Below, piece after piece: positions 45,592 to 63,078 of a stretch of 64,000 bases of DNA. Numbering within the stretch: position 1 is the first letter of the stretch; every line of letters begins with the position of its first letter. Both the position numbers and the translations under genes were made by a program. Below the pieces are notes generated by a model. It did no database searches and was not told the DNA's origin. It worked only from the letters and a program-made list of their open reading frames with translations. Where the stretch lies: positions 27,918 to 91,917 of the IMG/VR virus record IMGVR_UViG_3300033075_001896; one strand, given 5' to 3'. Origin of the DNA: a virus. Lineage: Duplodnaviria; Caudoviricetes.

Positions 45592-46551
45592 TCAGGTCGT
45601 CTCGCGCAGGGCCGTGATCTTGGCCGCGGCGTTCTCCTGTTCGACCGAGAAGGCCGCGCGCATGCGGATGTACACGTGCACGCCGCCGTTCCAGGGCTCG
45701 TCCACGACCTTGATGACCATCTTCTTGTACCACCCGAGGATGAGGTTCTTCGGGTCGGTGAAGATCGCCGGGGCCGTGTCGGGCGTGCCCGTGGTGACGG
45801 GCATGTTACCGACCTGAACCACACGCGATCCGCCGCAGACGGGCAGATCGACCGATTCGAGCGCGCGGTCGCCCGTGGCCGTCGCGCGGTCGGCGACGAT
45901 GTTGCGCCAGCGGTCGCCCGCCTTCTCGGCGACGTAGAACGCGTGGCGGTTCATGCGCCGGAACTTCAGGCGCACGCTCGACCGGGCCTGCTCCAGCAGC
46001 TCGCGCGAGAGGTAGGCGTTCGACGCGTTCACGACGTTCGAGGTGATGCGCTTGAGCCAGCCGTCCTGCTGGGCCATGCCGTGCGCGACGAGCGTCGTGT
46101 CGGTGATGTCCACGTCGCTCATCAGCGCCATCTCTTCGAGATCGACGCCCACCTTCTCGGCCAGGAGCCGGAGGTAGGTCTCCTCGAACATCTCGCCCTC
46201 GACGTTGTCTTCGAGCGCGGTGTAGCCGAGGAAGCCCTCGACCTCGATCACCTTGGCGTTGAGCGTGACCTCCGAGGTGGTCGGGGCGATGCGCTGGCTC
46301 GACCCGAGCGCGGCGCCGTCGCCGGGGTCGGCGCGCACGACGCGCGAGGCGAAGAGGATCTTGGGGAGCTTCTTCGTCTTCGAGGCCATCGGCTCGACGC
46401 GGCACGCGGCGAGGAGCGGCGTCGCGTTCTGCGCGATCTCGATGAACTTTCCTGCGACCTCGGTGGGGAGCTCACCACCCGACGAGAGGGCGGACGCGAG
46501 GAAGTCCGTGCGCTGCTCGCTGGTCATCTGTCGAAGGGACTTGGCGCTCAT
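45592..46551 (-). CDS. Major capsid protein (HK97 fold)
   Basis: GGELP...FI, ALEDNVEG..FE, DLEEMA, DGWLKR, FTDPKNLILG. Confidence 0.92.
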   Translation of the reverse strand: MSAKSLRQMTSEQRTDFLASALSSGGELPTEVAGKFIEIAQNATPLLAACRVEPMASKTKKLPKILFASRVVRADPGDGAALGSSQRIAPTTSEVTLNAKVIEVEGFLGYTALEDNVEGEMFEETYLRLLAEKVGVDLEEMALMSDVDITDTTLVAHGMAQQDGWLKRITSNVVNASNAYLSRELLEQARSSVRLKFRRMNRHAFYVAEKAGDRWRNIVADRATATGDRALESVDLPVCGGSRVVQVGNMPVTTGTPDTAPAIFTDPKNLILGWYKKMVIKVVDEPWNGGVHVYIRMRAAFSVEQENAAAKITALRETT

Positions 46552-46606
46552 GGCGTTCTACCTCTTGGGCGCGTCAGGTGCGCCGTACCGTGTGAAACGA
46601 GAAGGT

Positions 46607-48277
46607 TCACTCCTCGCCGTCGTCGTCACCCTGCGCGTCCACCGCGGGCTTCGTCCCGGCGCGTCCGACGAAGCGCCGGAGGCCGAGGACGCCCTGGAGC
46701 GGGCTCGCGGGGGCGCGCGTCGCGGCCGCTTCGGGCGGGGGGTCGCCGGCGCGGGGCGCGGGCCGTGCGGCTTCGAGCGCGCCGACGCGCTTCTCGGCCG
46801 TCTCGGCGCGCGTGCGCAGGGCCGTCTCGGTCGTGCGCGCGGCCGTGAGCTCGGTCTCGCGGGTGGCGAGGGCGGCGCGGGCCGTGTCGAGCGCGGCGCG
46901 GAGCTCGGCGAGCTCGCGGGCGCTCTTGGTCTCGCTCTCCGTCTCGCTCTCCTCGGTCTCCTCCCCGAGGAGCCCGTCGAGGTGGCCGCCGCAGTCGCTC
47001 GCGCACTGCCTGGCCTTCTCCAGCACCTCGCGCGTGGCCTTCGAGAGCTTCTTCCCGGCGCGCTGGTGGGCCTCGGCGACGTCGCCTTCGGTCGAGGCGG
47101 CGCGCGTCGAGACGCCCATCGCGGCGTCGGCCTCGTCGCAGACGCCCTGGACGACGGCGCCGAAGTCCACGCCGAGCGCGCGGAACTTCCGCACCATCTC
47201 TTCGTCGGTGGGGGAGCCGTAGTACGCGCACTCGTAGAACACCGACTCCGCCGCCATGAGGGCGCGGCTCATCGCGTCGCGCACCTTCCAGCGGTTCGCG
47301 CACGCGCCCCACACGGAGGCGAGGCTCGACCAGTCGGTGGTCGCGCGGCTCTCCACCTGCCGCACGAACGCCTCGACCTCTTCGCGGCCGAGGTCCTGCG
47401 CGCTGCGGAAGCCCCCGAGGAGGGCGGCGAAGTTCGCGCGGAGGGCCAGGGCCGTGACCGGCGTGGGGGGCTCCGCAGACGGGGCCGCGGCGGGCGTCTC
47501 GCGGGCCTCGGTCGTGGGGGCGAGGGGCGGGGCCGCGGCGGGCTCCGAGGGGGTCTGCGCGGCGGCCTGGGTGTCAGTCTTGATGGTCATATCGTCACAC
47601 CTCCAGAGCGGGGTCACCCCGCCCGAGTCGTCGCGTGCGCTCCGCGCCTCGACGCCCTCGAAGAGAATCCCGATCGCCGGGGCCTTCACGAGCGAGAGCG
47701 TGAGCGGGTAGGGGTCGAGAATCTCGCCCGTGCGGACCCTGCCGACGCCCGTAACGACGAGCGTCTTCTCGCGGTACTTCCCGGTGAACTCAATGCTGAA
47801 GCCCTTGAGCTTGCCGTCGCGGAGCTCCTGGCGCGTCGTCTCCTTGAGGACCTTCACCGTGACGACCCAGACGAGCGCCGGGTACTGCGCCGAGTCCTCG
47901 CGCGTGATCCAGCTCTCGACGATCGCGCCGACCGTGCCGTGGTCGTGGTGCGAGTCGATGCCCCCGGTCCCGCGTTCGAGAAACTTGTACGCGAAGGCCC
48001 GGAGCGTCTCGGGGCTCATCCACGTGCGGTAGGAGTCGATGCGGAAGGCGTCCTCGCCCGGGACCTCGCCCGACTCGGGCACGTCGAGCGCGGGGTACGC
48101 GATCCCTTCGACGAGCGTGTAGTCCGTCTCCTCGCGTACCGCGCGGATCGCGAAGTCGACGCGGCGACGCGCCGCGACCTCCGTGGGCGCGTCGAGCGAC
48201 GCATCCAGGGACCGTTGCAGGACGGCGCCGAGGGAGGCAGGCCAGAGCGCGACGAGGGAGAGGGCGGAGAGGCTCAC
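46607..48277 (-). CDS. Prohead protease (XkdF-like) with C-terminal scaffold
   Basis: IDSHHDH, IVESWI, DGKLKGFSIE, SLVKAPA; coiled-coil C-terminus. Confidence 0.85.
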   Translation of the reverse strand: MSLSALSLVALWPASLGAVLQRSLDASLDAPTEVAARRRVDFAIRAVREETDYTLVEGIAYPALDVPESGEVPGEDAFRIDSYRTWMSPETLRAFAYKFLERGTGGIDSHHDHGTVGAIVESWITREDSAQYPALVWVVTVKVLKETTRQELRDGKLKGFSIEFTGKYREKTLVVTGVGRVRTGEILDPYPLTLSLVKAPAIGILFEGVEARSARDDSGGVTPLWRCDDMTIKTDTQAAAQTPSEPAAAPPLAPTTEARETPAAAPSAEPPTPVTALALRANFAALLGGFRSAQDLGREEVEAFVRQVESRATTDWSSLASVWGACANRWKVRDAMSRALMAAESVFYECAYYGSPTDEEMVRKFRALGVDFGAVVQGVCDEADAAMGVSTRAASTEGDVAEAHQRAGKKLSKATREVLEKARQCASDCGGHLDGLLGEETEESETESETKSARELAELRAALDTARAALATRETELTAARTTETALRTRAETAEKRVGALEAARPAPRAGDPPPEAAATRAPASPLQGVLGLRRFVGRAGTKPAVDAQGDDDGEE

Positions 48278-49941
48278 GCCCCTGCGTCGGTGTCACCCGC
48301 GGCGGGGGCTTCGGCGGCGGGGGCTTCGGCGCCGTCGCCTCCACCGCCCTCCGTGGGCGTCGTCGCGCCGTCGCCCGTGTCCGCGCTCGACCCCCCGACC
48401 TTCGTCACCGCGCCGAGGGCCTTCGTCACGTCCGCGGGCAGGAGGAGGTTCTTCGCGAGCGCGTCGAGGAGCGCCGCGGGGATCTTGCGCCAGCTCTCGG
48501 GCGACGAGAGCTCGACGCCGAGGAGCGGCTCCAGAAGGTCGGCGACGTTCGCGACGGTGAGGACGCCCGCCTTGATCCCGACCTCGATGACCTTCAGGAG
48601 CTGCTCCTCCGAGAGGAGCGGCGGCCCCTTCGTGATCACGCGGCAGTGCCGCGCGCCGAGCTCGGGGAGGACGAAGCTGTTCAGGAGCTCGTCCTCGTCC
48701 GCGCGCTCCGGCGCGAACACCTGCTCCTCGGCCACCTGCCGCGCGGCCTGCGCGGTCGCGAAGTTGTACTCCTCGCTGCGGCCCATGAAGATCGGGGGCA
48801 GGCGGAACGCCATCGCCACGTCTTCGACGCAGCGGGTGCGGTATTCGAGGAACTGCGCGTCGGTCTGCGCGGCCTTGGTGAGGTCCTTGAAGTCGATGCG
48901 CGGCACGGCGCCCGGCCGCGCGATCGCCATGGGGTCGGCGGGGTCGGAGGTGGCGTCGGACTTCGCTTCGAGGATCAACGGGACGTGGCGGTTCGCGCGC
49001 CCCTTCACGGTCCCGAAGTGCTCCTTGAGCCGCTCGATCACGTCGTCGTCGAAGCTCGCGCCCTGCACCAAGATCGCCATCGGGGGGATGGCGTTGTTGT
49101 CGAAGATATCGACGTTGACCTCGCCCGCGGCGGCGCGACCGGCCGCGGAGGACGCCGCGCCACGCCAGCAGGGCTTTCCGTACACGCTCCCCGGCTCGTA
49201 GCGGCAGAGGTTGAGCACCTCGGACGCGAGGTCCTGGGGCGCGGCGTTCGGGTCCTCATCGCCCGTGTCGGCGCGCAACGGCCGCGGGTCGCCGAGCTCC
49301 TTGAACCAGACCATCCGGCCGTTCACGTACTGTGCGTACCGGCGGAAGCGCCGGTACTGCGTGACCTTCGTGAAGGCGCCGTCGGGCGCGCGCACCCACC
49401 GCGCGGTCTCGACGATCGCGCGGTCCCACCGGGTCTTGCGCATCGTGTAGGTCGGGCAGTGGTCGAGCCCCACGAGGCGCCCCTTCGCGTCGCGCAAGAC
49501 CTCGTAGTAGCCGTCGCCGAAGACGGCCAGGTCCTTGCGCACGCGCTTGCGCGCGGCGGTGAAGCTCCCGACCGAGGAGGCGGCGTCGAACCACGTCTTG
49601 AGCCGCTCCCGCTCCCCCTGGATCGCGTCGTTGAGGGCGGGGGGCGGCGCGGCGAGCACGGGCACGAACTGCACGCCGAACGAGCACGTGTTGACGACCA
49701 TCGCGTCGACGGCCGACTGGAGCACGTCCGAGTCGTCGTAGCGGCGCTGCACGTAGCTGTAGGGGTAGGGCGGCTCGATGAGCCCGTGAAGGCCGTATTG
49801 GTCGGCGAAGGGGTCGAGCTGCTTCGACGCGCCCGCCTTGGCCGCCTCGGGCGTGACGCCGGTCTCCAGCGGCAGGATGCGGACCTTGACGGTGGCGGTG
49901 GGCTTCGTGCGCTTCTTCGGGCGTCGGGAGGGCGTCGTCAC
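48274..49941 (-). CDS. Portal protein (PBSX-like)
   Basis: LIEPPY, GDGYYEVLRD, WFKELGDPR, FDNNAIP, DAQFLEY, AFRLPPIFMGRSEEYNFATA. Confidence 0.93.
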   Translation of the reverse strand: MTTPSRRPKKRTKPTATVKVRILPLETGVTPEAAKAGASKQLDPFADQYGLHGLIEPPYPYSYVQRRYDDSDVLQSAVDAMVVNTCSFGVQFVPVLAAPPPALNDAIQGERERLKTWFDAASSVGSFTAARKRVRKDLAVFGDGYYEVLRDAKGRLVGLDHCPTYTMRKTRWDRAIVETARWVRAPDGAFTKVTQYRRFRRYAQYVNGRMVWFKELGDPRPLRADTGDEDPNAAPQDLASEVLNLCRYEPGSVYGKPCWRGAASSAAGRAAAGEVNVDIFDNNAIPPMAILVQGASFDDDVIERLKEHFGTVKGRANRHVPLILEAKSDATSDPADPMAIARPGAVPRIDFKDLTKAAQTDAQFLEYRTRCVEDVAMAFRLPPIFMGRSEEYNFATAQAARQVAEEQVFAPERADEDELLNSFVLPELGARHCRVITKGPPLLSEEQLLKVIEVGIKAGVLTVANVADLLEPLLGVELSSPESWRKIPAALLDALAKNLLLPADVTKALGAVTKVGGSSADTGDGATTPTEGGGGDGAEAPAAEAPAAGDTDAGA

Positions 49942-49963
49942 GCCCCTTCGGGCGAGTCACCCG

Positions 49964-50434
49964 TCAGGTGTAGTCCGACGAGACGGTCGTGCGGAGCGTG
50001 TAGCCCGCGCGCGTCGTCTGCACGGCGCGCAGCGCCACGACCTCGACGCGCAGGGCCTCGGCGTAGCTGCGGAGCTGCACGATCTCGGCGCGCATGGCCT
50101 CGGCGTAGTTGCGGAGCTGCACGACCTCGGTGCGGAGGGCGTTGATCGTGGTGCGGTCGGCGGCGTTCTCGGTGTCGGTGGGCGTGGCGGGGGTGGCGTA
50201 GGCCGCGAGGGGGCTCGCGAGCGCGGCGTCGAGCGTCGGGACGGTCGTCTCCGCGGGCGACGTGATCGTCGGGACGGTGGTGCCCGCGGGCGACGTGATC
50301 GTCGAAGGCGCGGAGCCCTTCAGCCGGTTCACGTCGTACGCGAGGCCGTTGAGGAGCGTCTTCACGTCGGGCGAGCCGTGGCCCTGGTTCAGGCCCGCGC
50401 CGCCCGTGCCGAAGTTCTGGGGGATTGCGACCAT
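49964..50434 (-). CDS. Putative head fibre/decoration protein
   Basis: TITSPAxTTVP x2 and 14-aa heptad repeats; TGAC motif plus strong SD. Confidence 0.55.
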   Translation of the reverse strand: MVAIPQNFGTGGAGLNQGHGSPDVKTLLNGLAYDVNRLKGSAPSTITSPAGTTVPTITSPAETTVPTLDAALASPLAAYATPATPTDTENAADRTTINALRTEVVQLRNYAEAMRAEIVQLRSYAEALRVEVVALRAVQTTRAGYTLRTTVSSDYT

Positions 50435-50497
50435 GGTGGGGGTGTTCCTTTCGGACCTTCGGCCCGGTCACCCCCGCAACCGGCCGGGCCCCGAACC

Positions 50498-50947
50498 TCA
50501 GACCGGCTCCCTCGCGGCGAGTGCCACGAAGGCGTCGAAGCGATCGTGCTTGCACGCCTCGACGAGCGCGTAGAACCACACCTCGTTCGCGCTCAGGTGG
50601 GCGCCGCTCGGCAGTGCGTCGCGCCGCACGAACTGCCCCGCAATGCAAAGCGCCTCGTGGACCGTCGGCCAGCGTGCCGCGAGCGCGTCGCGAAGGGCGA
50701 CGGCCTCGCGTCGAGGCACGACGACGGGCTGCGGCGCCCGCGGGTAGTGCTTCTGGACGGCGGCGATCAGCGCGGGGAGCTGGTCCTGTGCGGCCACGTG
50801 CTCGATCAGGTGGCCGAGCACGCGGTACGCCGATCCGCCGACATCGAGCTTCGCGAGGTCGACGCCGACACTCCAGCCGACCATCTCCACGAGGGGGACG
50901 CGATCGAGGTAGCCGGTCAGGGCTTCGTGCAGGTCTTCGGTGGTCAT
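50498..50947 (-). CDS. Tandem effector-associated domain (EAD1-like) protein
   Basis: Two ~70-aa helical units: LHEAL...GVDLAKL...LIEHVAAQDQLPALIAAVQKHYP and LRDALAARWP...W..ALVEA.K.DRFDAFVALAAREP. Confidence 0.65.
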   Translation of the reverse strand: MTTEDLHEALTGYLDRVPLVEMVGWSVGVDLAKLDVGGSAYRVLGHLIEHVAAQDQLPALIAAVQKHYPRAPQPVVVPRREAVALRDALAARWPTVHEALCIAGQFVRRDALPSGAHLSANEVWFYALVEACKHDRFDAFVALAAREPV

Positions 50948-51200
50948 GGGGTGTTCTACTCCGTGTGGTTCCGTGCCGTGCAATCTTGAGGACACATTCT
51001 GTCGAGGGTGGGGGCTCGGTGCGGTCACCCCCGGAGGCGCGCGGGCCAACGCCCGCCGCGATGGGACGTCGACGCGAGGAACCGCCACCAGGGCCCCGCG
51101 CTCCCGCGGGCCTCGTAGAAGTCCCGCACGGCCGCGGTGACCTCGGCGTAGAGCGGGGCGAACTGCCAGTGTTCGGGCATCGCCGTCTGGTGGGGCGTGG

Positions 51201-51716
51201 TCACGCCGCGAGTCGATGCAAACGCCGTCCCTCGCGCGTGAGGGGCGTCCACTCGGCGCCCTCCATCAGGCGGAAGGGGTCGTCGTCCCACTTCGCACCG
51301 AAGTCGACGCCGGGGATGCTCGCGTGGAGCCAGTCGCCGTCGCTCGACACGAGGAGCACCATCGGGCGCCACTCGTCGCCGTGACGTACGCGCGACACCT
51401 GCCAGAAGCCGCCGTGCTCCTGAAGATGGCGCTCGACCTCTTCGCGCGTCGGCGGGGCGGTGTTCGTGACCATCCGCGGGGTCAGCGCAGGGGTGAAGCG
51501 CACCTCGGCCCACTGTTCGCGGATCGCCTTGACGTAGAGCGGTCTCATGTCTCCAGGGACGGCCACGAACCAGTTGCCGTCGTGGAGCTGCGTGGCACGT
51601 GCAATCTCCGTTCGCTCCTGCCCGTCGCGCGTGAGATGAATCCACCACAGCCCCTCGTAGAGAGGCGCGTCGAACCATTGCACGGGCGGAGGTTGCGGGT
51701 TGGCGGAGTTGTTCAT
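51201..51716 (-). CDS. Hypothetical Trp-rich protein
   Basis: AAGGAGG SD before MNNSANP. Confidence 0.55.
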   Translation of the reverse strand: MNNSANPQPPPVQWFDAPLYEGLWWIHLTRDGQERTEIARATQLHDGNWFVAVPGDMRPLYVKAIREQWAEVRFTPALTPRMVTNTAPPTREEVERHLQEHGGFWQVSRVRHGDEWRPMVLLVSSDGDWLHASIPGVDFGAKWDDDPFRLMEGAEWTPLTREGRRLHRLAA

Positions 51717-51991
51717 GGGTTTGGCCCTCCTTCGTCGGCCGCGACCGTCGCTTTCAAGGACCGCTCCAACGCGAGGAACCACCCGTCGGACCCGCCGCTC
51801 TTGCTGCACTCGAACAGCACGCTGTCGAACGCCCAGAGCGCGGCCACGAGGTCGAGCGCGTGCTCCTCACACGCCGTGCACGTCGGGAGCGAGACGGTCA
51901 GCGTGCCGAGTCGATACGCCTCCGCCGCCGGTCGCTCGCCGCAGAGCACGCAACGGTCGGTCGCCGTGACGGTGAGGCTGTACTCCGCCAT
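51713..51991 (-). CDS. Small Zn-finger protein
   Basis: CVLC...CTAC. Confidence 0.5.
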   Translation of the reverse strand: MAEYSLTVTATDRCVLCGERPAAEAYRLGTLTVSLPTCTACEEHALDLVAALWAFDSVLFECSKSGGSDGWFLALERSLKATVAADEGGPNP

Positions 51992-51998
51992 GGCGGAC

Positions 51999-53051
51999 TC
52001 AGACGCCCGTGCGTCGGCGGAAGTTACACGCGATGAGTTGTGCCTGAAGGGAGACAAGCCGTTGCACGACGCCGATCGCCGGGAGGCGCCGGTCGTAGTG
52101 TGTCCGCGCGCGATCGAGGAGCGCCGTGAGCCTCGCGGGGTCGTACCCCTCGGCCGCGCCCCAGAAGCCGTCTGCGTCGTCCTGGGTGAGCTGCGTGACC
52201 TCGCCGCGGAGGTAGCGCGGCGCGAGCTCGGTGCGCGAGAGCGCGAACACGACGCGCGCCTCACGGTCGGTGAGCGGGCCGTGGTCGATCGGCGGCGCAG
52301 GGGGCGGGGCGGGGGGCGTGAGGACCGGATCGGGCACCGCCGGGGGCCGCGGTACGGTGAGGCCATGGGCCTCGCGGCGGGCGCGATCCACGTCGATCCC
52401 GTAGGACTTCACGAGCGCGTAGAGGTTCGAGCGTGAGCAGTCGAGGATCTGCGCGGCGCGGCGCATGTTGTACCCGGTCTCGGCCAGCGTGCGCTCGATC
52501 GTGATGCGCTTCTGCATGGCGAGCGAGGTGCCGCCCGAGGCCGTCACGCGACGCGCGCGGAGCTTCGGCAGACGGACGCGTCGCCGCAGACGACGTACGA
52601 TCCGCTTCCGGCGCGGCGTGGCGGGGGCCTCGGTCGCGTCGGCGGCGGGGAGTGACGCGGCGATCGTGCGGCCCTCGGGCGTGAGCCGCAGGCCGCCCTT
52701 CACCCGCTCGAAGTACCCTTGCCCGACGAGGCCCGCCTTGCCGAACACCCGCACCCGCACCTTCACGTGGTCGGGGTGTTCGGGGAAGCCCTGGAGCGCG
52801 AACACTGCGGGGTGGAGGTGGTGCGCGGCGACCGCGAGGTCCTCGGTCGAGAAGACGGGGAGGCGCGCGGAGAGCTTCGCGGCGGCGGCCAGGAGAAGGG
52901 CGGCGTGCGAGTGCGTGGCAGGGCCGCGGGGCGTGGTGCGCAGCGGGCAGGTGCTCCGGTAGTGCCCCGGGTCGCGACAGAGGGAGCAGCCGCGGGAGTC
53001 GTCGCGGTCCTCGCGGACACGCTCGGCGTCGAGAGCTTCGTGCAGGCTCAT
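51999..53051 (-). CDS. Zn-knuckle plus wHTH-like plus Fis-type HTH protein
   Basis: CSLCRDPGHYRSTC; IERTLAETGYNMRRAAQILDCSRSNLYALVKSYGI. Confidence 0.75.
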   Translation of the reverse strand: MSLHEALDAERVREDRDDSRGCSLCRDPGHYRSTCPLRTTPRGPATHSHAALLLAAAAKLSARLPVFSTEDLAVAAHHLHPAVFALQGFPEHPDHVKVRVRVFGKAGLVGQGYFERVKGGLRLTPEGRTIAASLPAADATEAPATPRRKRIVRRLRRRVRLPKLRARRVTASGGTSLAMQKRITIERTLAETGYNMRRAAQILDCSRSNLYALVKSYGIDVDRARREAHGLTVPRPPAVPDPVLTPPAPPPAPPIDHGPLTDREARVVFALSRTELAPRYLRGEVTQLTQDDADGFWGAAEGYDPARLTALLDRARTHYDRRLPAIGVVQRLVSLQAQLIACNFRRRTGV

Positions 53052-53368
53052 GGCGACGCGAGGCCCTGGAGTTCGGCCAGCATGTCCGTACGGAGCTCCT
53101 CCGCCTTGCGCAGGAGGAGCGGGATCGCCGTCTCGATCGCGGGCGGCGTCATCGTGCGAGAGGGCGGGCTGAAGACGTTCACAGCGATCTGTCCCACCAC
53201 GGGGTTCCCTTCGGTCATGCCGTTCATCACCACCGCCGCGCGGGCCTCGTAGCGATACCCCGCGCTGTCATCACAGAGTCGCCACGCTTCGAGTCGAAGG
53301 GCGGTGAGGGGGCGCGAGAAGTGGTTGAGGGCGGTGAGAAGGAGGCGCAGTCGGTCGGCGTCGGTCAT
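53048..53368 (-). CDS. Hypothetical protein
   Basis: ATGA overlaps on both sides. Confidence 0.5.
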   Translation of the reverse strand: MTDADRLRLLLTALNHFSRPLTALRLEAWRLCDDSAGYRYEARAAVVMNGMTEGNPVVGQIAVNVFSPPSRTMTPPAIETAIPLLLRKAEELRTDMLAELQGLASP

Positions 53369-54168
53369 GCCCCGCGCCGTCGCAAAACGCGGTCCATCGC
53401 CGGGTAGAGCTCACACACCCGCACCTCGGAGAGGCCCGACCGCTGGCCGTCGTTGACCTCGATCACGATCCAGTCGCCCGCGGCCGTGCGCGCCACGTCG
53501 AGGGCGTAGAAGCGCAGGCGGGGGTGGACGCGGGCGAGGGCCTCGCGGAGGAAGTCCGCGGGGATCTCCGAGGCGGGCGGCGGGTCGCGCACGGTGCAGT
53601 CCTCGGGCGGCCAGTAGAAGCCCCGGCCGACGACCTCGCGGTCGAGCACGAACACCCGGAACTCCGTCGAGACCGGGCACCCCCCGAGGCCGTCCCCGAG
53701 GCGCTCCAGGGGCACGTAGCGCCGCGCGACGAGCGTTTGCGCGCGCATGCCGGTGTCGCGCTGGAGGAGGCTGCGGAGCTGGATCGCGCCGGCCTTCGTA
53801 GGCGCGTACATCCGCTCCCAGGCCCCCTTGTCCGCGCTCGACCCCTTCACGATGAAGGCCGTGCCGTCGTCGGGGAGCTGCGCGAAGTCCACCCAGGTGT
53901 CGGGGGTGAGCCCGCGGAGGTCCTCGGCCCACCGGGAAGGGTCCGCGGCGTAGCGGTACGCGAAGCCGTCGTTGAGGAGCGTCGCCCCGAGGCGGGCCAC
54001 GTCGGCGTCGAGGCGTCGCTCCCACGGCCACGCGTAGTGTCGGGCGTACACGAGGTCGCCCGCCTGCACGTCGAGGATGGAGGTCGCCGGGCGCCACCCG
54101 ACGGCCTGCGCGTAGATGAGCTCGCCGGGGTCGAGCTGCGATGGTTCGTGGAGGAAGACGAGGTTCAC
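53365..54168 (-). CDS. ATP-grasp protein (R2K-like)
   Basis: FIVKG, RRYVPL, EFRVFVL, FYALDVA..G.WIVIEVNDGQRSG. Confidence 0.85.
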   Translation of the reverse strand: MNLVFLHEPSQLDPGELIYAQAVGWRPATSILDVQAGDLVYARHYAWPWERRLDADVARLGATLLNDGFAYRYAADPSRWAEDLRGLTPDTWVDFAQLPDDGTAFIVKGSSADKGAWERMYAPTKAGAIQLRSLLQRDTGMRAQTLVARRYVPLERLGDGLGGCPVSTEFRVFVLDREVVGRGFYWPPEDCTVRDPPPASEIPADFLREALARVHPRLRFYALDVARTAAGDWIVIEVNDGQRSGLSEVRVCELYPAMDRVLRRRGA

Positions 54169-54770
54169 AGGAGTCTCTCCCAGGTCTCGACCGGGACAAC
54201 GCCCGCACCTTCACAGGGCGTTCGCTCGCACCGGCCGTCGACGAGCGTGCGGGCGCGGTCGAGCGATCGTACCGCGGCGTGCTCGATCAGCCGCAGATAC
54301 CCGCGCTCGCCCACGTGGTATCGAGCGACGCGGAAGCGCGGGGCGCCGAGCGGGTACATCGACGCGGGCGCGCGTCGTCCCGCGTAGCATTCGAGGTCGT
54401 AGAGGCACCAGACCTCGCGCGTCGCGCGCGTCGGGGCAGGCTTTGTGCCGCGATTCAACCACTCCCGCGTGCGTCGAAGGTCGGGGTCGAGTTCGGACGG
54501 GTCGGCGGGAACGAGCATGTCCTCGACGTCGGGCGTGCGCGGGGCGTGGACGACGCGCACGTCGCCCGGTCCCGGCGTGAGCGTGCTCACGTAGGGGCGG
54601 CGCTCGTCGATCGCGTCGGCCATGGCGGTGTACGTCTCCAGCACCTCACGCTTCGTACGAAACTCGCCGTGCTCCGCCATCTCGCGGCGCTTGAGCGCAT
54701 CGAAGGTGTCCATGATGTGCGCGACGTCGCGCCCTCCAACGAGCGCGAGCTTCGGTCGGGGTTGGGCCAT
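54165..54770 (-). CDS. Protein whose N-terminus resembles the C-terminal tail of large N6-adenine R-M methyltransferases
   Basis: DVAHIMDTF...RE..EHGEFRTKREVLETY.AMA.AI...RPY.S.L.P.P.D.RV.H; AAAGGA SD. Confidence 0.55.
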   Translation of the reverse strand: MAQPRPKLALVGGRDVAHIMDTFDALKRREMAEHGEFRTKREVLETYTAMADAIDERRPYVSTLTPGPGDVRVVHAPRTPDVEDMLVPADPSELDPDLRRTREWLNRGTKPAPTRATREVWCLYDLECYAGRRAPASMYPLGAPRFRVARYHVGERGYLRLIEHAAVRSLDRARTLVDGRCERTPCEGAGVVPVETWERLL

Positions 54771-54802
54771 GGGCGGTGTCCTTTGTCCTTTCTGGGGAAG
54801 TC

Positions 54803-55453
54803 TCAGGCTGCAACGTCCTGGCCGAGGAAGGGCCCCGCGCCCCAGGACCACGCGCGGATCAAGAATTTGTTGGCCTCGTGGGGCGGGGGCGGCGGGCCGT
54901 TGCGCCACCGCTCGATGCGCCCGGTGAAGCCCGTCGCACTGAGATCTTTCGCCCGGCGCGAGAGGTGCTCGAGATCGAAGCCCGCGCGGGTGAGGGCGAT
55001 CCCGAGGCCGTTCCATCGCCAGTCTCGGGGCTTGCCGAGAAGGTTCCAGAGCTCATACGAAGCGCCCGAGGGCGAGACCCACAGGGGGTGGAGCGGGTCC
55101 TCGCGCACGCCGGGTTGTGGCGTCCACTCGTTGTCTTTTAGCCACGGCGTCCAGACGTGGCGCCAGAGCGCGCGCCAGTAGCCCCCGGCCTGGAGCCGCG
55201 TCTTCTTCTTGCGGAAGACGGCCGTGTGGAGTTCGAAACGGCCCGAGTAGGGGTTCCGACGGAACTCATGCGCGAGGTCGTAGCCCCACTGCCGGAGGAA
55301 GGTCTCGGGGTCGAGGATGAGCCGGTCGTCGAGCGCCGCGACGAAGAGAACGAGCGGATGACCGACGGCGTAGCAGTAGATCCCCGGCCACAGGCCGTGC
55401 GCGTCGAGGACGGGCGCTTCGATCACCTTGCGCGGGCGGGTCTCATCGCTCAT
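54803..55453 (-). CDS. Hypothetical Trp-rich protein
   Basis: GGGAGAG SD; coding-like composition. Confidence 0.55.
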   Translation of the reverse strand: MSDETRPRKVIEAPVLDAHGLWPGIYCYAVGHPLVLFVAALDDRLILDPETFLRQWGYDLAHEFRRNPYSGRFELHTAVFRKKKTRLQAGGYWRALWRHVWTPWLKDNEWTPQPGVREDPLHPLWVSPSGASYELWNLLGKPRDWRWNGLGIALTRAGFDLEHLSRRAKDLSATGFTGRIERWRNGPPPPPHEANKFLIRAWSWGAGPFLGQDVAA

Positions 55454-56156
55454 GGGTCTCTCCCTCGGTGTCTTCATCGGTGGGGGCGTGCAGGGCGAGG
55501 ACCTCGGCGCCGTCGACGAAGTCGCGGACGAAGGCCGCGCAGAGGGCGGCCACGAGGAGGTCGTCGTCGCCGTCGAACTCCAGCGGCGTGACGGTCGTGA
55601 GGACGCCGCGGAGCATCACGGTGCAGCCGTGCGGGGAGGTCACGGTGTCGATCCAGGCCCACACGTCGCCGAGCTCGGTCTCGATGCGCCACGGGCGCGG
55701 AACGGCGCGGTGGATCGCGCTCACGCGCCCTTCTCGACGGGCGTCAGGCTCACGAGGAGGTAGCGCCACACCGAACAGTGCGTGCCCGCGTAGCGGCGGT
55801 TGAGGACGACGTCCACCGCGACGCGCGCGCCCTTTCGCCCGCGCGGGGGGGTGAGCCGTCGCATGACGCTTCCGCGCTTCGAGAACGGACGCGCGGACGT
55901 GCTCCGCCGAGGGTGGCGTGTCGGTGCGGCCGACAAGCCAGTCGAGGCTACAGCCCAACGTCTCCGCCCACGCCACCGCGACGGCGAGCGAGGGGTTTGG
56001 CCTCGCCCCAGACACGAGACCCGCCGCGAGCGAAGCGGCGTTCCCTGCGAGGCGATCGAGCTCCCGCAGGGACAGGTCCTCCGCGAGAACAACGGCTTCT
56101 GCGAGACGCTCTCGGAGCAACACGGCGAACGTGGGGTGAGCTTTCTCGTCGTTCAT
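55443..56156 (-). CDS. XRE-family HTH protein (3' part may be separate small genes)
   Basis: LSLRELDRLAG...NPSLAVAVAWAETLGCSLDWLVG. Confidence 0.65.
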   Translation of the reverse strand: MNDEKAHPTFAVLLRERLAEAVVLAEDLSLRELDRLAGNAASLAAGLVSGARPNPSLAVAVAWAETLGCSLDWLVGRTDTPPSAEHVRASVLEARKRHATAHPPARAKGRARRGGRRPQPPLRGHALFGVALPPREPDARREGRVSAIHRAVPRPWRIETELGDVWAWIDTVTSPHGCTVMLRGVLTTVTPLEFDGDDDLLVAALCAAFVRDFVDGAEVLALHAPTDEDTEGETHER

Positions 56157-56984: not shown

Positions 56985-58763
56985 TCAAGGCGGGGCGTTG
57001 AGGGTGATCACCCGACTGGTGCTCTTCTTCGCCGCGAGCTTCTTCTCGGTGAGGAGGATCCACCGACGGACCCACACCTCCGAGATCCAGTGGCAAAGCA
57101 CGGTGTCGTCGTGGGGCTCGGTCCCGAGGCCGTGCAGCTCCTTCACCAGCTCGTCCACGAGGGCGCGGGCGTCTTCCTCGTCGGCGCGGAGGTCGGACGC
57201 GCGGCCGTAGGGCAGGACCACCTTCCCGAACTCGTAGAGGCTCGACATGCCCGGCACGCCCTCGTAGAGGTTGTGCTTCTTCTTGTCGGTGGTGTGGCCG
57301 ACGATCGGGAGGTCCTTCGTGCGGCGCAGGCCGATCTCGTAGAGCTTCCCGAAGGCGTTGTTCTCGACGACGATCGCGGCGCGCTGCGGGAAGCGCGCGG
57401 CCTCTTCGAGGATGAGCGCCGTGATCTGCCCCGGCGTGAGCCCCCGGCGGCGGACCATGCGGAGGAGCACGCGCTCCTGCGTCTTCCAGCGCAGCCCCCA
57501 GGTCATGCCCACGGTGTAGTCCGAGTCCTGCTCCTCGGCCTTCTCCGCGTCATCGACGAGGGCGAAGTCCCACGTCTGCCAAATGACCGCGAACTCCTCG
57601 GTGAGGGGGTGCGGGCGGTCGGCGTCGACGTCCCACCCCTCGCGCAAGAACCCGCGCGTCGCGCCGCGGGCCTTCGCCGCCTTGAGCCAGTCCGCGCGGA
57701 AGGCCGCCGCCGAATCGTCGGTGACCTGGTTCTGGTACTCGCGGGCGAAGAGGAAGCTCCCGATGCTCCGCCAGACGAGAAGCATCTTCTCGATCGGCCA
57801 CTTCTCGGGCCAGAGGGTCTTCCCTCCGGCGTCGGCGGGGACGTGCGCGCCGCGGACGACCTCCTTGCCCGAGGCGTCGACCGTGACGTCCCAGGTGACC
57901 CGCGTGAGGTCGGGCCACTCCAGAATGGCCTCGGTCTGGATCGTGGCGAAGGTCGGGTCGTCGAGAAGGTCCTGGTAGGTGTCGTCGCTGTGCTTGCGCG
58001 TGCCGATGGCGACCACGGAGCCCCCGTCGTCGAGCATCGGGAGCACGGTGCCCTTGAGCCAGTGCTTCGTCTTGCGCCGCCGGCGGGCGTTCGCGACCGT
58101 CGTCTCGTCGTCGATGTCGTCGAGGATGATGAGGTCGTACCGGCCGCCCGTGATCGACGACCCGACGCCCACGGCCTTCACCGTGCCGTCGCGGAGGTTC
58201 TTCGAGCGGCGGACGCAGATGGAGGACTTGCCCCACCGCCCCTTCGAGCGGAGCGTCCCGCCCTCCTCGGGCACCTCCCAATCGACCTTGATGCGGGGGT
58301 TCTCTTCGAGGTCGTGCTTGATCATCGCGAGCGAGTCGCGGGCCGACTCGGCGCTCTTGCAGACGATCAGGATGCGGACGTTGCGGTTGGTGAGGATGCG
58401 GTGCAGCGCCAACACCCGCGCGACGACGTGCGTCTTGCCGTGCGAGCGGGGGGCGAGGAAGACGATGCGCTTCTCCTCGTCGAAGCGCCGATACCAGTCG
58501 CGGTGACAATCGGGCGTGGCGAGCCCGAGGTAGTGGTAGGCGAGCCACGTGAGCCCGCGACCGCCCCCGAGGCGCGTCAGGGCGCGGCGGCCCTGCGGGG
58601 TCGCGACGAGGGCGCGGGCCTGGATCTCGGCGAGCTCGCGGGCGTTGTCGTTGGCGGAGCGGGGCGGGAGCGGCGAGGCCGCGGGGGCCGCGCGTCGTCG
58701 GGTGCGCGTGCGGGGTCGGCGGGTCGGGGAGGCAGGCGAAGTACTCGCCCCCGCGGAGCTCAT
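56985..58763 (-). CDS. terL: Terminase large subunit
   Basis: APRSHGKT Walker A, ITGGRYDLIILDD Walker B, IGTRKHSDD, FAREYQN, nuclease WDFA...DYT...HDD. Confidence 0.95.
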   Translation of the reverse strand: MSSAGASTSPASPTRRPRTRTRRRAAPAASPLPPRSANDNARELAEIQARALVATPQGRRALTRLGGGRGLTWLAYHYLGLATPDCHRDWYRRFDEEKRIVFLAPRSHGKTHVVARVLALHRILTNRNVRILIVCKSAESARDSLAMIKHDLEENPRIKVDWEVPEEGGTLRSKGRWGKSSICVRRSKNLRDGTVKAVGVGSSITGGRYDLIILDDIDDETTVANARRRRKTKHWLKGTVLPMLDDGGSVVAIGTRKHSDDTYQDLLDDPTFATIQTEAILEWPDLTRVTWDVTVDASGKEVVRGAHVPADAGGKTLWPEKWPIEKMLLVWRSIGSFLFAREYQNQVTDDSAAAFRADWLKAAKARGATRGFLREGWDVDADRPHPLTEEFAVIWQTWDFALVDDAEKAEEQDSDYTVGMTWGLRWKTQERVLLRMVRRRGLTPGQITALILEEAARFPQRAAIVVENNAFGKLYEIGLRRTKDLPIVGHTTDKKKHNLYEGVPGMSSLYEFGKVVLPYGRASDLRADEEDARALVDELVKELHGLGTEPHDDTVLCHWISEVWVRRWILLTEKKLAAKKSTSRVITLNAPP

Positions 58764-59482
58764 CCGCCGTCCTTCTTCGGGGCCTTGTTGCGCTCGGCGA
58801 TCGTGTCCACGACGGCGAACATCACCTCGGCGGGGAGCGAGGGTTCCGTGGCCGGGACGGCCGTCGACACCGGGGACTCCTCGCGGTTGTGGCCGCCGGA
58901 GCCGGGGAGGGCCTGCGACGGGGCGACGCCGTAGATCGCGCGGAGCGTGTCGTAGAGGGTCCGCTGCGCGTTCGACAGCTCCAGCACGGTCCTCGACGGC
59001 ACCGGGCGGCGGGGCTTCGGGATCTTCGGGGCGGCGCTCGGGTCGGGCGACGCTTCGGGCTCCGTCGGGACGAGCGGCTCACTCACGTCCGCGAAGGGGC
59101 TCTTGTCGGGCGAGGCGGGCAGGAGCTCCCGGTAGAAGCGGACGGTGTACTCGATCTCGGCGAGGAGGAGCGTGGTGTTCGCGACCACCTGTGCCCCCGC
59201 GTTTCCCAGGACTTCAGCCGCGTTTTGCACGTACGCCTGGCTCTGCCGGGCGACGTCGTCGCGCAGGGTGTGCTTCCACGCCTCGCGCTTCGAGGACCAC
59301 TGGTGGCGCAGGGCCCGGTCGCGGACGGTGCGGTGGAGGACCTTGAAGCGGGTGGCGAGGTCCTGGGTGGAGGGCCAGGAGCGCTCGGTGACCTTGGTCG
59401 CGTCCGGGGGGATCTCCCCCTGGACGTAGAGGCGCTCCAGCTCCTCCCACGGGGTGTCTCGGCGTCGGGGCGTCTTCGCCAC
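58760..59482 (-). CDS. terS: Terminase small subunit
   Basis: WEELERLYVQG...DLATRFKV..RTVRDRA...W HTH; directly upstream of terL. Confidence 0.75.
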   Translation of the reverse strand: MAKTPRRRDTPWEELERLYVQGEIPPDATKVTERSWPSTQDLATRFKVLHRTVRDRALRHQWSSKREAWKHTLRDDVARQSQAYVQNAAEVLGNAGAQVVANTTLLLAEIEYTVRFYRELLPASPDKSPFADVSEPLVPTEPEASPDPSAAPKIPKPRRPVPSRTVLELSNAQRTLYDTLRAIYGVAPSQALPGSGGHNREESPVSTAVPATEPSLPAEVMFAVVDTIAERNKAPKKDGG

Positions 59483-63000: not shown

Positions 63001-63074
<74 letters not shown>

Positions 63075-63078
63075 CCTA

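Follow-up and report, generated by a model that had tools for sequence, protein, structure and literature searches.

A dispensable phage cassette encoding a tandem EAD1-type protein, a candidate decoy for host EAD1 modules

The 149-residue protein P0001, encoded in an IMG/VR virus record, consists of two EAD1-type domains with no effector attached, and its gene is an accessory cassette that some related phages lack. Its N-terminal half is assigned to EAD1 from sequence profiles, and both halves are modelled as helical bundles resembling the Death fold. We infer from these features, with a probability of roughly 45%, that P0001 is an accessory, 'moron'-type decoy that binds and caps EAD1 modules of the host and thereby inhibits them. 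The window analysed is a stretch of 64,000 nucleotides, bases 27918-91917 of the 91.9-kb record, which is judged 78% complete.

Among roughly a dozen small adaptor domains, EAD1 is the most frequent; nine of the twelve are helical and have counterparts in structure within the Death-like superfamily (Kaur et al., PMC7159879, PMC8195603). In bacteria EAD1 is predicted to connect effector enzymes with a core that senses or regulates, in conflict systems centred on NTPases. In the systems described there, one EAD1 copy is found on a core component (VMAP, iSTAND, GAP1, TRADD-N or Ubl) and the other on an effector, which may be caspase-like, trypsin-like, a peptidoglycan hydrolase or of another type, and cognate EADs tend to be close relatives (PMC7159879, PMC8195603). 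The initial annotation of this DNA took coupling by EADs to be established; the principle is set out in both papers, but homotypic coupling is there a computational prediction (Kaur et al., PMC7159879, PMC8195603). These two papers, both from the Aravind group, are the only literature that we found on EAD1 in this sense, and phage-encoded copies or decoys of this kind go unmentioned in both. For a phage inhibitor that is adaptor only, the literature gave a single paper, in which the CARD-only protein of Acinetobacter phage 133 (pCARD) reduces the cleavage of gasdermin and gives T4 a partial rescue from a gasdermin system that depends on CARD, and in which pyrin-only proteins of animal viruses are cited as analogues (Wein et al. 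2023, PMC10312443).

The gene and its two EAD1-type domains

The gene and the two domains that it encodes are placed as follows.

50498..50947, minus strand: P0001 gene, 149 aa, stop included (translation, GC3 of 0.89, Pfam EAD1 at 33 bits)
50726..50947, minus strand: N-terminal EAD1 domain, residues 1-74 (Pfam, hhalign, VIA-align)
50501..50725, minus strand: C-terminal divergent EAD1-like domain, residues 75-149 (local profile, TM-scores to ESM Atlas clusters, model)

In translation, the frame of 149 codons plus stop runs from an ATG at 50947 to a stop at 50498-50500. Its GC content by codon position (0.79/0.45/0.89) matches the coding pattern of the source sequence, which has 72% GC, and we therefore regard it as a real coding gene. 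The start Met is shared by P0002 (93% identical, seen in 18 contigs) and P0003 (67%), which supports the start, and intact homologues occur at 93%, 67%, 31% and 30% identity; the ORF lies where the initial annotation had it. A longer, GTG-started frame reaching 51088 was rejected as the gene because P0002 and P0003 begin at the Met of P0001, and also because 51025-51180 is the tail of another gene.

The family had been called by eye in the initial annotation, which suggested HMMER against Pfam EAD1 as a check, and that comparison upholds the call: against PF19955, whose curated gathering cut-off is 24.2 bits, the whole protein scores 33.0 bits (E=8.5e-8) in two stretches, and residues 1-75 alone score 24.7 bits, above the cut-off. 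EAD7, the second Pfam match, is sub-threshold. When the N-terminal halves of P0001 and its relatives are aligned by hhalign to the three canonical EAD1 repeats of P0008, a protein of 323 aa that also matches EAD8 below threshold, at 25.2 bits where 27 is required, the probability is 97% (E=1.3e-10, 71 columns). The N-terminal half ends in HYPRAP, corresponding to the EYPxNP end of the canonical repeats. Since the hhalign match runs through this shared (E/H)YPxxP ending, we conclude from the profiles that the N-terminal half is a true EAD1 domain.

An exhaustive HMMER search of 1.84 billion representatives gave seven matches in all, P0008 among them. P0006 (143 aa) and P0009 (156 aa) are distant full-length relatives, about 30% identical, in which the two-part layout is kept. 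The nearest cellular EAD1 proteins are remote, with P0008 at E=4.5e-4 and a best E of about 1e-4.

For the C-terminal half, the earlier description of two helical repeats holds in structure and, in sequence, weakly. BLASTP finds no similarity between the two halves and hhalign a probability of 0.6%; the C-terminal half alone has no Pfam match, and its hhalign probability against the EAD1 repeats is 34% only. On the other side, a local EAD1 profile, built from the N-terminal halves and the EAD1 repeats of P0008, gives six C-terminal halves 4.3-11.1 bits, with P0001 the highest at 11.1; the four that belong to this phage group lie at 9.3-11.1 bits, above the maximum of 8.5 for 1200 composition-matched shuffles. 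The C-terminal half of P0006 reaches 19.2 bits against Pfam EAD1, and whole P0001 outscores its own N-terminal half by 8 bits on PF19955, consistent with a weak second copy. In structure, the C-terminal half has the same order of helices as the N-terminal half and superposes on ESM Atlas clusters annotated as Trypsin_2+EAD1 (TM 0.75), EAD1-CHAT (0.69) and stand-alone EAD1 (0.64).

Pfam, PHROGs and PADLOC find no effector or enzymatic domain in P0001, in agreement with the initial annotation; the usual effector, signalling or core fusion partner of EAD1 is absent, and we call the protein 'adaptor-only'. Shared-word searches, which are weak evidence here, turned up no longer fused forms and no shorter single-domain forms. 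A second true EAD1 protein is absent from the 91.9-kb record, which is 78% complete. One sub-threshold EAD1 match of 18 bits in that record is the helical N-terminal domain of DnaB (L002, G000:C1:8399-8527), and we regard it as spurious and not as a partner of P0001. That the DnaB domain reaches 18 bits shows how easily helical domains approach the EAD1 profile.

A predicted fold resembling Death domains

The AlphaFold2 model of P0001, built from a five-sequence alignment, has a mean pLDDT of 91.2 and a pTM of 0.81. It comprises two bundles, each of five helices and about 70 residues, with identical helix order, the helices spanning residues 3-11, 17-26, 31-34, 40-53 and 57-67 in the N-terminal domain, and 79-92, 96-103, a short turn, 120-133 and 137-145 in the C-terminal domain. 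Each is thus modelled as a small, non-enzymatic, all-alpha domain, as is typical of EAD1, whose domains run to about 80-90 residues, and catalytic families are unmatched.

Foldseek returned no match at E<=0.001 from either the PDB or BFVD, and a PDB sequence search with P0001 was empty. In an exhaustive VIA-align search of 48,161 PDB representatives, CARD, DD, DED or PYD domains fill about 40 of the top 50 rows. The Z-scores of the death-fold matches, among them those below, lie between 4.4 and 7.8, a range that VIA-align warns can come from common helical arrangements.

NLRC4 CARD: Z 7.8
ARC CARD: Z 7.6
FADD DD: Z 7.1
NOD1 CARD: Z 6.9
caspase-1 CARD: Z 6.9
RIPK1 DD: Z 6.4
bacterial death-like domain 8ss1: Z 6.0
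MyD88 DD: Z 5.7
vFLIP 7pdj: Z 5.3

The N-terminal domain is aligned to death-fold domains at Z 5.3-7.8 over 66-79 residues with an rmsd of 2.4-3.4. Modelled alone (pLDDT 88.7), the C-terminal domain gives a similar list, headed by the ARC CARD and 8ss1 (both Z 5.5) and the NOD1 CARD (5.3), followed by the FADD and Fas DDs (4.8-4.9) and the MC159 vFLIP 2f1s (4.4). Because these Z-scores fall in a possibly generic range for helical bundles, we take the consistency of the match lists as the evidence, and not any single score. Read in this way, the model supports a resemblance of P0001 to the Death fold, as had been proposed from the sequence, with CARD and Death domains dominating the matches though the Z-scores are modest and Foldseek is empty.

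Further down the lists, at Z 4-5.5, are SAP, Rho-N, GcrA and phage P7 domains, and one ESM Atlas match by language-model features carries the automatic name of a TetR regulator. These would fit if P0001 were a small helical protein with no role in immunity, binding RNA polymerase or DNA or serving as a head-assembly chaperone, its likeness to EAD1 reflecting no more than distant ancestry or a common helical fold; the position of the gene beside the head genes, always directly upstream of a 156-aa gene and the portal gene, points the same way. We consider this explanation rather improbable. Death-fold rows clearly outnumber the other structural matches, EAD1 is the sole Pfam family above its curated cut-off, distant homologues lie in unrelated gene contexts, and natural deletions, described below, retain the 156-aa gene and portal while losing P0001, which is therefore not needed for assembly.

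The nearest ESM Atlas clusters by language-model features consist of 65-79-aa proteins (64, 85 and 236 members). They are partly EAD1 or EAD7, and their commonest known taxon is Uroviricota, which gives a lead that small EAD-only proteins are common in phages.

The whole chain of P0001 also aligns with tandem CARDs, with 138 residues of MDA5 at Z 7.8 and 140-144 residues of RIG-I at Z 7.1-7.3, modest values at an rmsd of 3.8-4.0. Given these alignments and the pTM of the model, we propose that the two EAD1-type domains are packed into one rigid unit. Among the tandem death-fold proteins known from animals, some activate (ASC, FADD, RIG-I) and others inhibit (vFLIP). P0001 might accordingly be thought of as a bridging or hijacking adaptor, whose dissimilar domains would join two host EAD1 partners or nucleate an assembly, so that the phage or prophage could redirect or trigger effectors for superinfection exclusion, timed cell death or proteolytic processing. 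That the halves are so unlike would fit two specificities, that effector-less multi-EAD cellular proteins such as P0008 exist, presumably as adaptors, gives this idea a model, and that the best whole-chain alignments are to RIG-I and MDA5, whose tandem CARDs nucleate signalling, lends it structural colour. We nevertheless judge it unlikely: no EAD1 effector or sensor of the phage's own is encoded in the record, setting off suicide effectors of the host is normally harmful to a phage, and the sole phage death-fold-only protein to have been tested, pCARD, is an inhibitor (PMC10312443).

An exchangeable cassette between terminase and portal

The genes around P0001 include those for phage terminase and head proteins, with an accessory island between terminase and portal.

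56985-59078, minus strand: large terminase (phrog_38, E=1e-70)
between terminase and portal, minus strand: accessory island of about 6.5 kb, small non-structural genes
53365-54168, minus strand: R2K-clade ATP-grasp protein (Pfam R2K_3, E=2e-22), conserved island member
51999-53051, minus strand: 350-aa protein with a Zn-knuckle-like CxxC..H..C motif and a Fis-type HTH_8, conserved island member
49964-50434, minus strand: 156-aa conserved gene
48274-49941, minus strand: portal
46607-48277, minus strand: protease/scaffold
45592-46557, minus strand: major capsid

P0001 is phage-borne, as the initial annotation held: its record is a viral one from IMG/VR, and genes for terminase, portal, protease and capsid surround it. 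The record also encodes DnaB and a queuosine-type cluster. Both this phage and others related to it occur widely in samples of wastewater, activated sludge and rivers. The terminase is at most 30% identical to those of cultured phages of many hosts, and the phage has no close cultured relative; a search of 185,579 species genomes gave no relative for the capsid protein or for the tandem-EAD alignment, and QueC, with matches of 30-50% identity only to scattered phyla, points to no host. IMG/VR yielded no relatives other than the window's own record, and neither P0001 nor the triple-EAD1 protein P0008 has a match among the 50,697 phage records of INPHARED. Pfam searches with ten further neighbouring ORFs were empty, and P0001 and eight neighbours are unmatched in PADLOC.

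Two tRNA genes lie in the window, a tRNA-Tyr(GTA) that is unusually short at 67 nt (55911-55977, minus strand) within the accessory island, and a tRNA-Met(CAT) near the record end (63001-63076, plus strand). Relatives carry an extra Mom-like gene (PF25680) in the terL-portal island. The 156-aa protein (49964-50434, minus strand), which always directly precedes the portal and has a weak match to phrog_23836 as its sole match, contains Pro/Thr-rich tandem motifs and near-repeated heptads, RTEVVQLRNYAEAMRAEIVQLRSYAEALRVEVVALR, at its C-terminus; its gene evolves fast, with a dN/dS of 0.71 compared with 0.09 for the portal gene, and the product is possibly a head protein of the decoration or fibre-like kind.

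Contigs from four wastewater runs were aligned to 46000-55900; those from RNA libraries may include DNA and are uninformative on transcription. Relatives with 90-95% identity lack the EAD gene, each of them keeping the 156-aa gene and an upstream gene remnant. In two of the deletions the joints, 50484->51042 and 50464->51022, each skip 557 nt, and in a third, 50436->51022, 585 nt are skipped with 29 substituted letters between. Alleles with and without the cassette are both present in run X3. The elements that delimit the cassette are given below.

50465..50476: 12-nt direct repeat CGGTCACCCCCG (coding strand, GGGGGTGACCG), right copy, lying 22 nt past the stop codon
51022..51033: left copy of this repeat, overlapping the TGA stop of the upstream remnant
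50948..51021, minus strand: 74-nt leader, with GGAG 11 nt before the ATG
51025..51180, minus strand: 51-codon in-frame remnant (MPEHWQF...ARLRG-stop), recognised by alignment to L003 and L004

The repeat, which contains a GGTGAC core, has two exact copies only in the window. The joints of the two 557-nt deletions lie at these copies, whose spacing is also 557 nt; we conclude that the gene, together with its 74-nt leader, is one unit with a direct repeat at either end. The leader is nearly identical in the related contigs L003 and L004 and is lost together with the gene in the deletion variants. A scan of 49900-52100 found no consensus for a sigma-70-type promoter or for a terminator. The parent gene of the remnant, of 186 aa, is whole in L003 and L004 (7363-7923), and the 51 codons left here mark a recombination scar at the upstream edge of the cassette.

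Other genes of the island come and go in the same manner. In related wastewater phages three small ORFs, at 51233->51740 (171 aa), 52997->53357 (106 aa) and 54167->54808 (201 aa), are each precisely absent or replaced, and the terL-portal island is thus a set of independent, exchangeable presence/absence cassettes. In L009 (3850-4381), the DNA upstream of codon ~64 of the EAD gene has been replaced by unrelated sequence, which codes for a portion of another small protein that has a hydrophobic helix; the break coincides with the boundary between the domains, by the inter-domain linker (VQKHYPRAP), and a 90-aa ORF with the C-terminal domain alone remains. Homologues at 67% and about 30% identity keep both domains and adjoin genes without counterpart in this phage; one of their contigs carries a PHROG-family gene. 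The EAD gene is therefore a dispensable accessory cassette, and, as natural variants delete it, an essential role in the virion or in packaging is ruled out despite its site next to the portal.

The dN/dS values rest on small counts and are inflated by GC3 bias. Measured against L003, the EAD gene has a ratio of 0.55, the portal 0.09 and the remaining neighbours 0.4-0.7; with the 67%-identical copy as reference, the EAD gene gives 0.75-0.95; the capsid and protease genes have 0.44 and 0.40. The EAD gene thus evolves fast, like its accessory neighbours, and dN/dS does not set it apart from them. Within P0001, variable stretches alternate with the conserved blocks GYLDRVPLVEMVGW, LGHLIEHVAA, HYPRAP, RWPTV and WFYA.VEACK.

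A fast-evolving gene that is present in some relatives and absent from others, and whose N-terminal domain has been replaced in L009, could be a decaying or neutral passenger with no current function. This we think very improbable, for homologues as distant as 30% identity, P0006 and P0009, still have an open frame with the two domains, there are blocks of strictly conserved core residues, and the model is confident and well packed; the high dN/dS, for its part, is common to the functional capsid and protease genes, the ratio being inflated as noted above.

Possible function and comparison with known systems

If P0001 is a decoy, it would dock through one or both EAD1 domains onto EAD1 modules of the host. 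Composed of two EAD1-type domains and nothing else, it can hardly do anything but bind such modules, and inhibition, by competition or capping, would be the simplest outcome because it brings no effector: P0001 would cap the host modules in a dominant-negative manner and leave effectors uncoupled from the core, and this uncoupling would blunt abortive infection or defence. The remoteness of the cellular EAD1 proteins counts against the decoy reading, since it implies that the domain was not recently copied from a target; given the tendency of cognate EADs to be close relatives (Kaur et al.), we regard it as mildly unfavourable. A more specific version, which we put forward tentatively, would have P0001 as a minimal, vFLIP-like, tandem-EAD1 counter-defence cassette that is mobile and poisons EAD1-mediated assembly, and so perhaps the first inhibitor of the vWA-MoxR/VMAP, iSTAND or GAP1 systems found in bacteria of multicellular type.

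Kaur et al. describe EAD-coupled conflict systems that are large, widespread and hardly characterised at the bench. A phage protein consisting of the docking domain only would be a ready-made probe for them, and whatever partner it binds would be a system relevant to the phage. If the decoy reading is true, it would provide direct evidence that these purely predicted ternary systems act against phages and that EADs dock homotypically, and it would extend the parallel with animal virology (viral FLIPs, pyrin-only and CARD-only proteins) beyond the single case of a phage CARD-only protein. Given a host, the natural alleles with and without the cassette offer a clean genetic contrast.

Compared with the EAD1 domains (PF19955) of the vWA-MoxR/VMAP, iSTAND, GAP1-GTPase, NucA-trypsin, EACC1 and TRADD-N systems, the N-terminal half of P0001 has the same conserved core and YPxxP end and lies above the Pfam cut-off, and the C-terminal half is modelled with the same fold. 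Cellular EAD1 domains, however, occupy one end of a protein with an effector, signalling or core role, and a cognate copy lies close by, whereas in P0001 two EAD1-type domains stand alone, in a phage, with the partner absent from the record.

The closest functional precedent is pCARD of phage 133. Like pCARD, P0001 is phage-encoded, of about 140 aa, made up only of adaptor domains, here with a predicted death fold, and the product of a dispensable accessory gene. Interference with adaptor-mediated activation of a defence effector has been shown for pCARD, whereas P0001 is likened to it from its gene and model. The two have no sequence similarity (P0001 has no match in the 50,697 phage records), and pCARD is CARD-like and reported as a single domain, whereas P0001 is of the EAD1 type, with two domains in tandem joined by a linker of about 10 residues.

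The vFLIPs, such as MC159 and KSHV vFLIP, with tandem DEDs, are effector-less viral proteins that block assembly of the death-signalling complex. P0001 resembles them, as it does the poxviral and cellular pyrin-only and CARD-only proteins, in being an effector-less protein with a predicted death fold, and shares with the vFLIPs the tandem arrangement. The likeness is one of analogy, homology being undetectable: vFLIP aligns over one domain only, and the predicted packing between the domains of P0001 aligns better, over 138-144 residues, to the tandem CARDs of RIG-I and MDA5.
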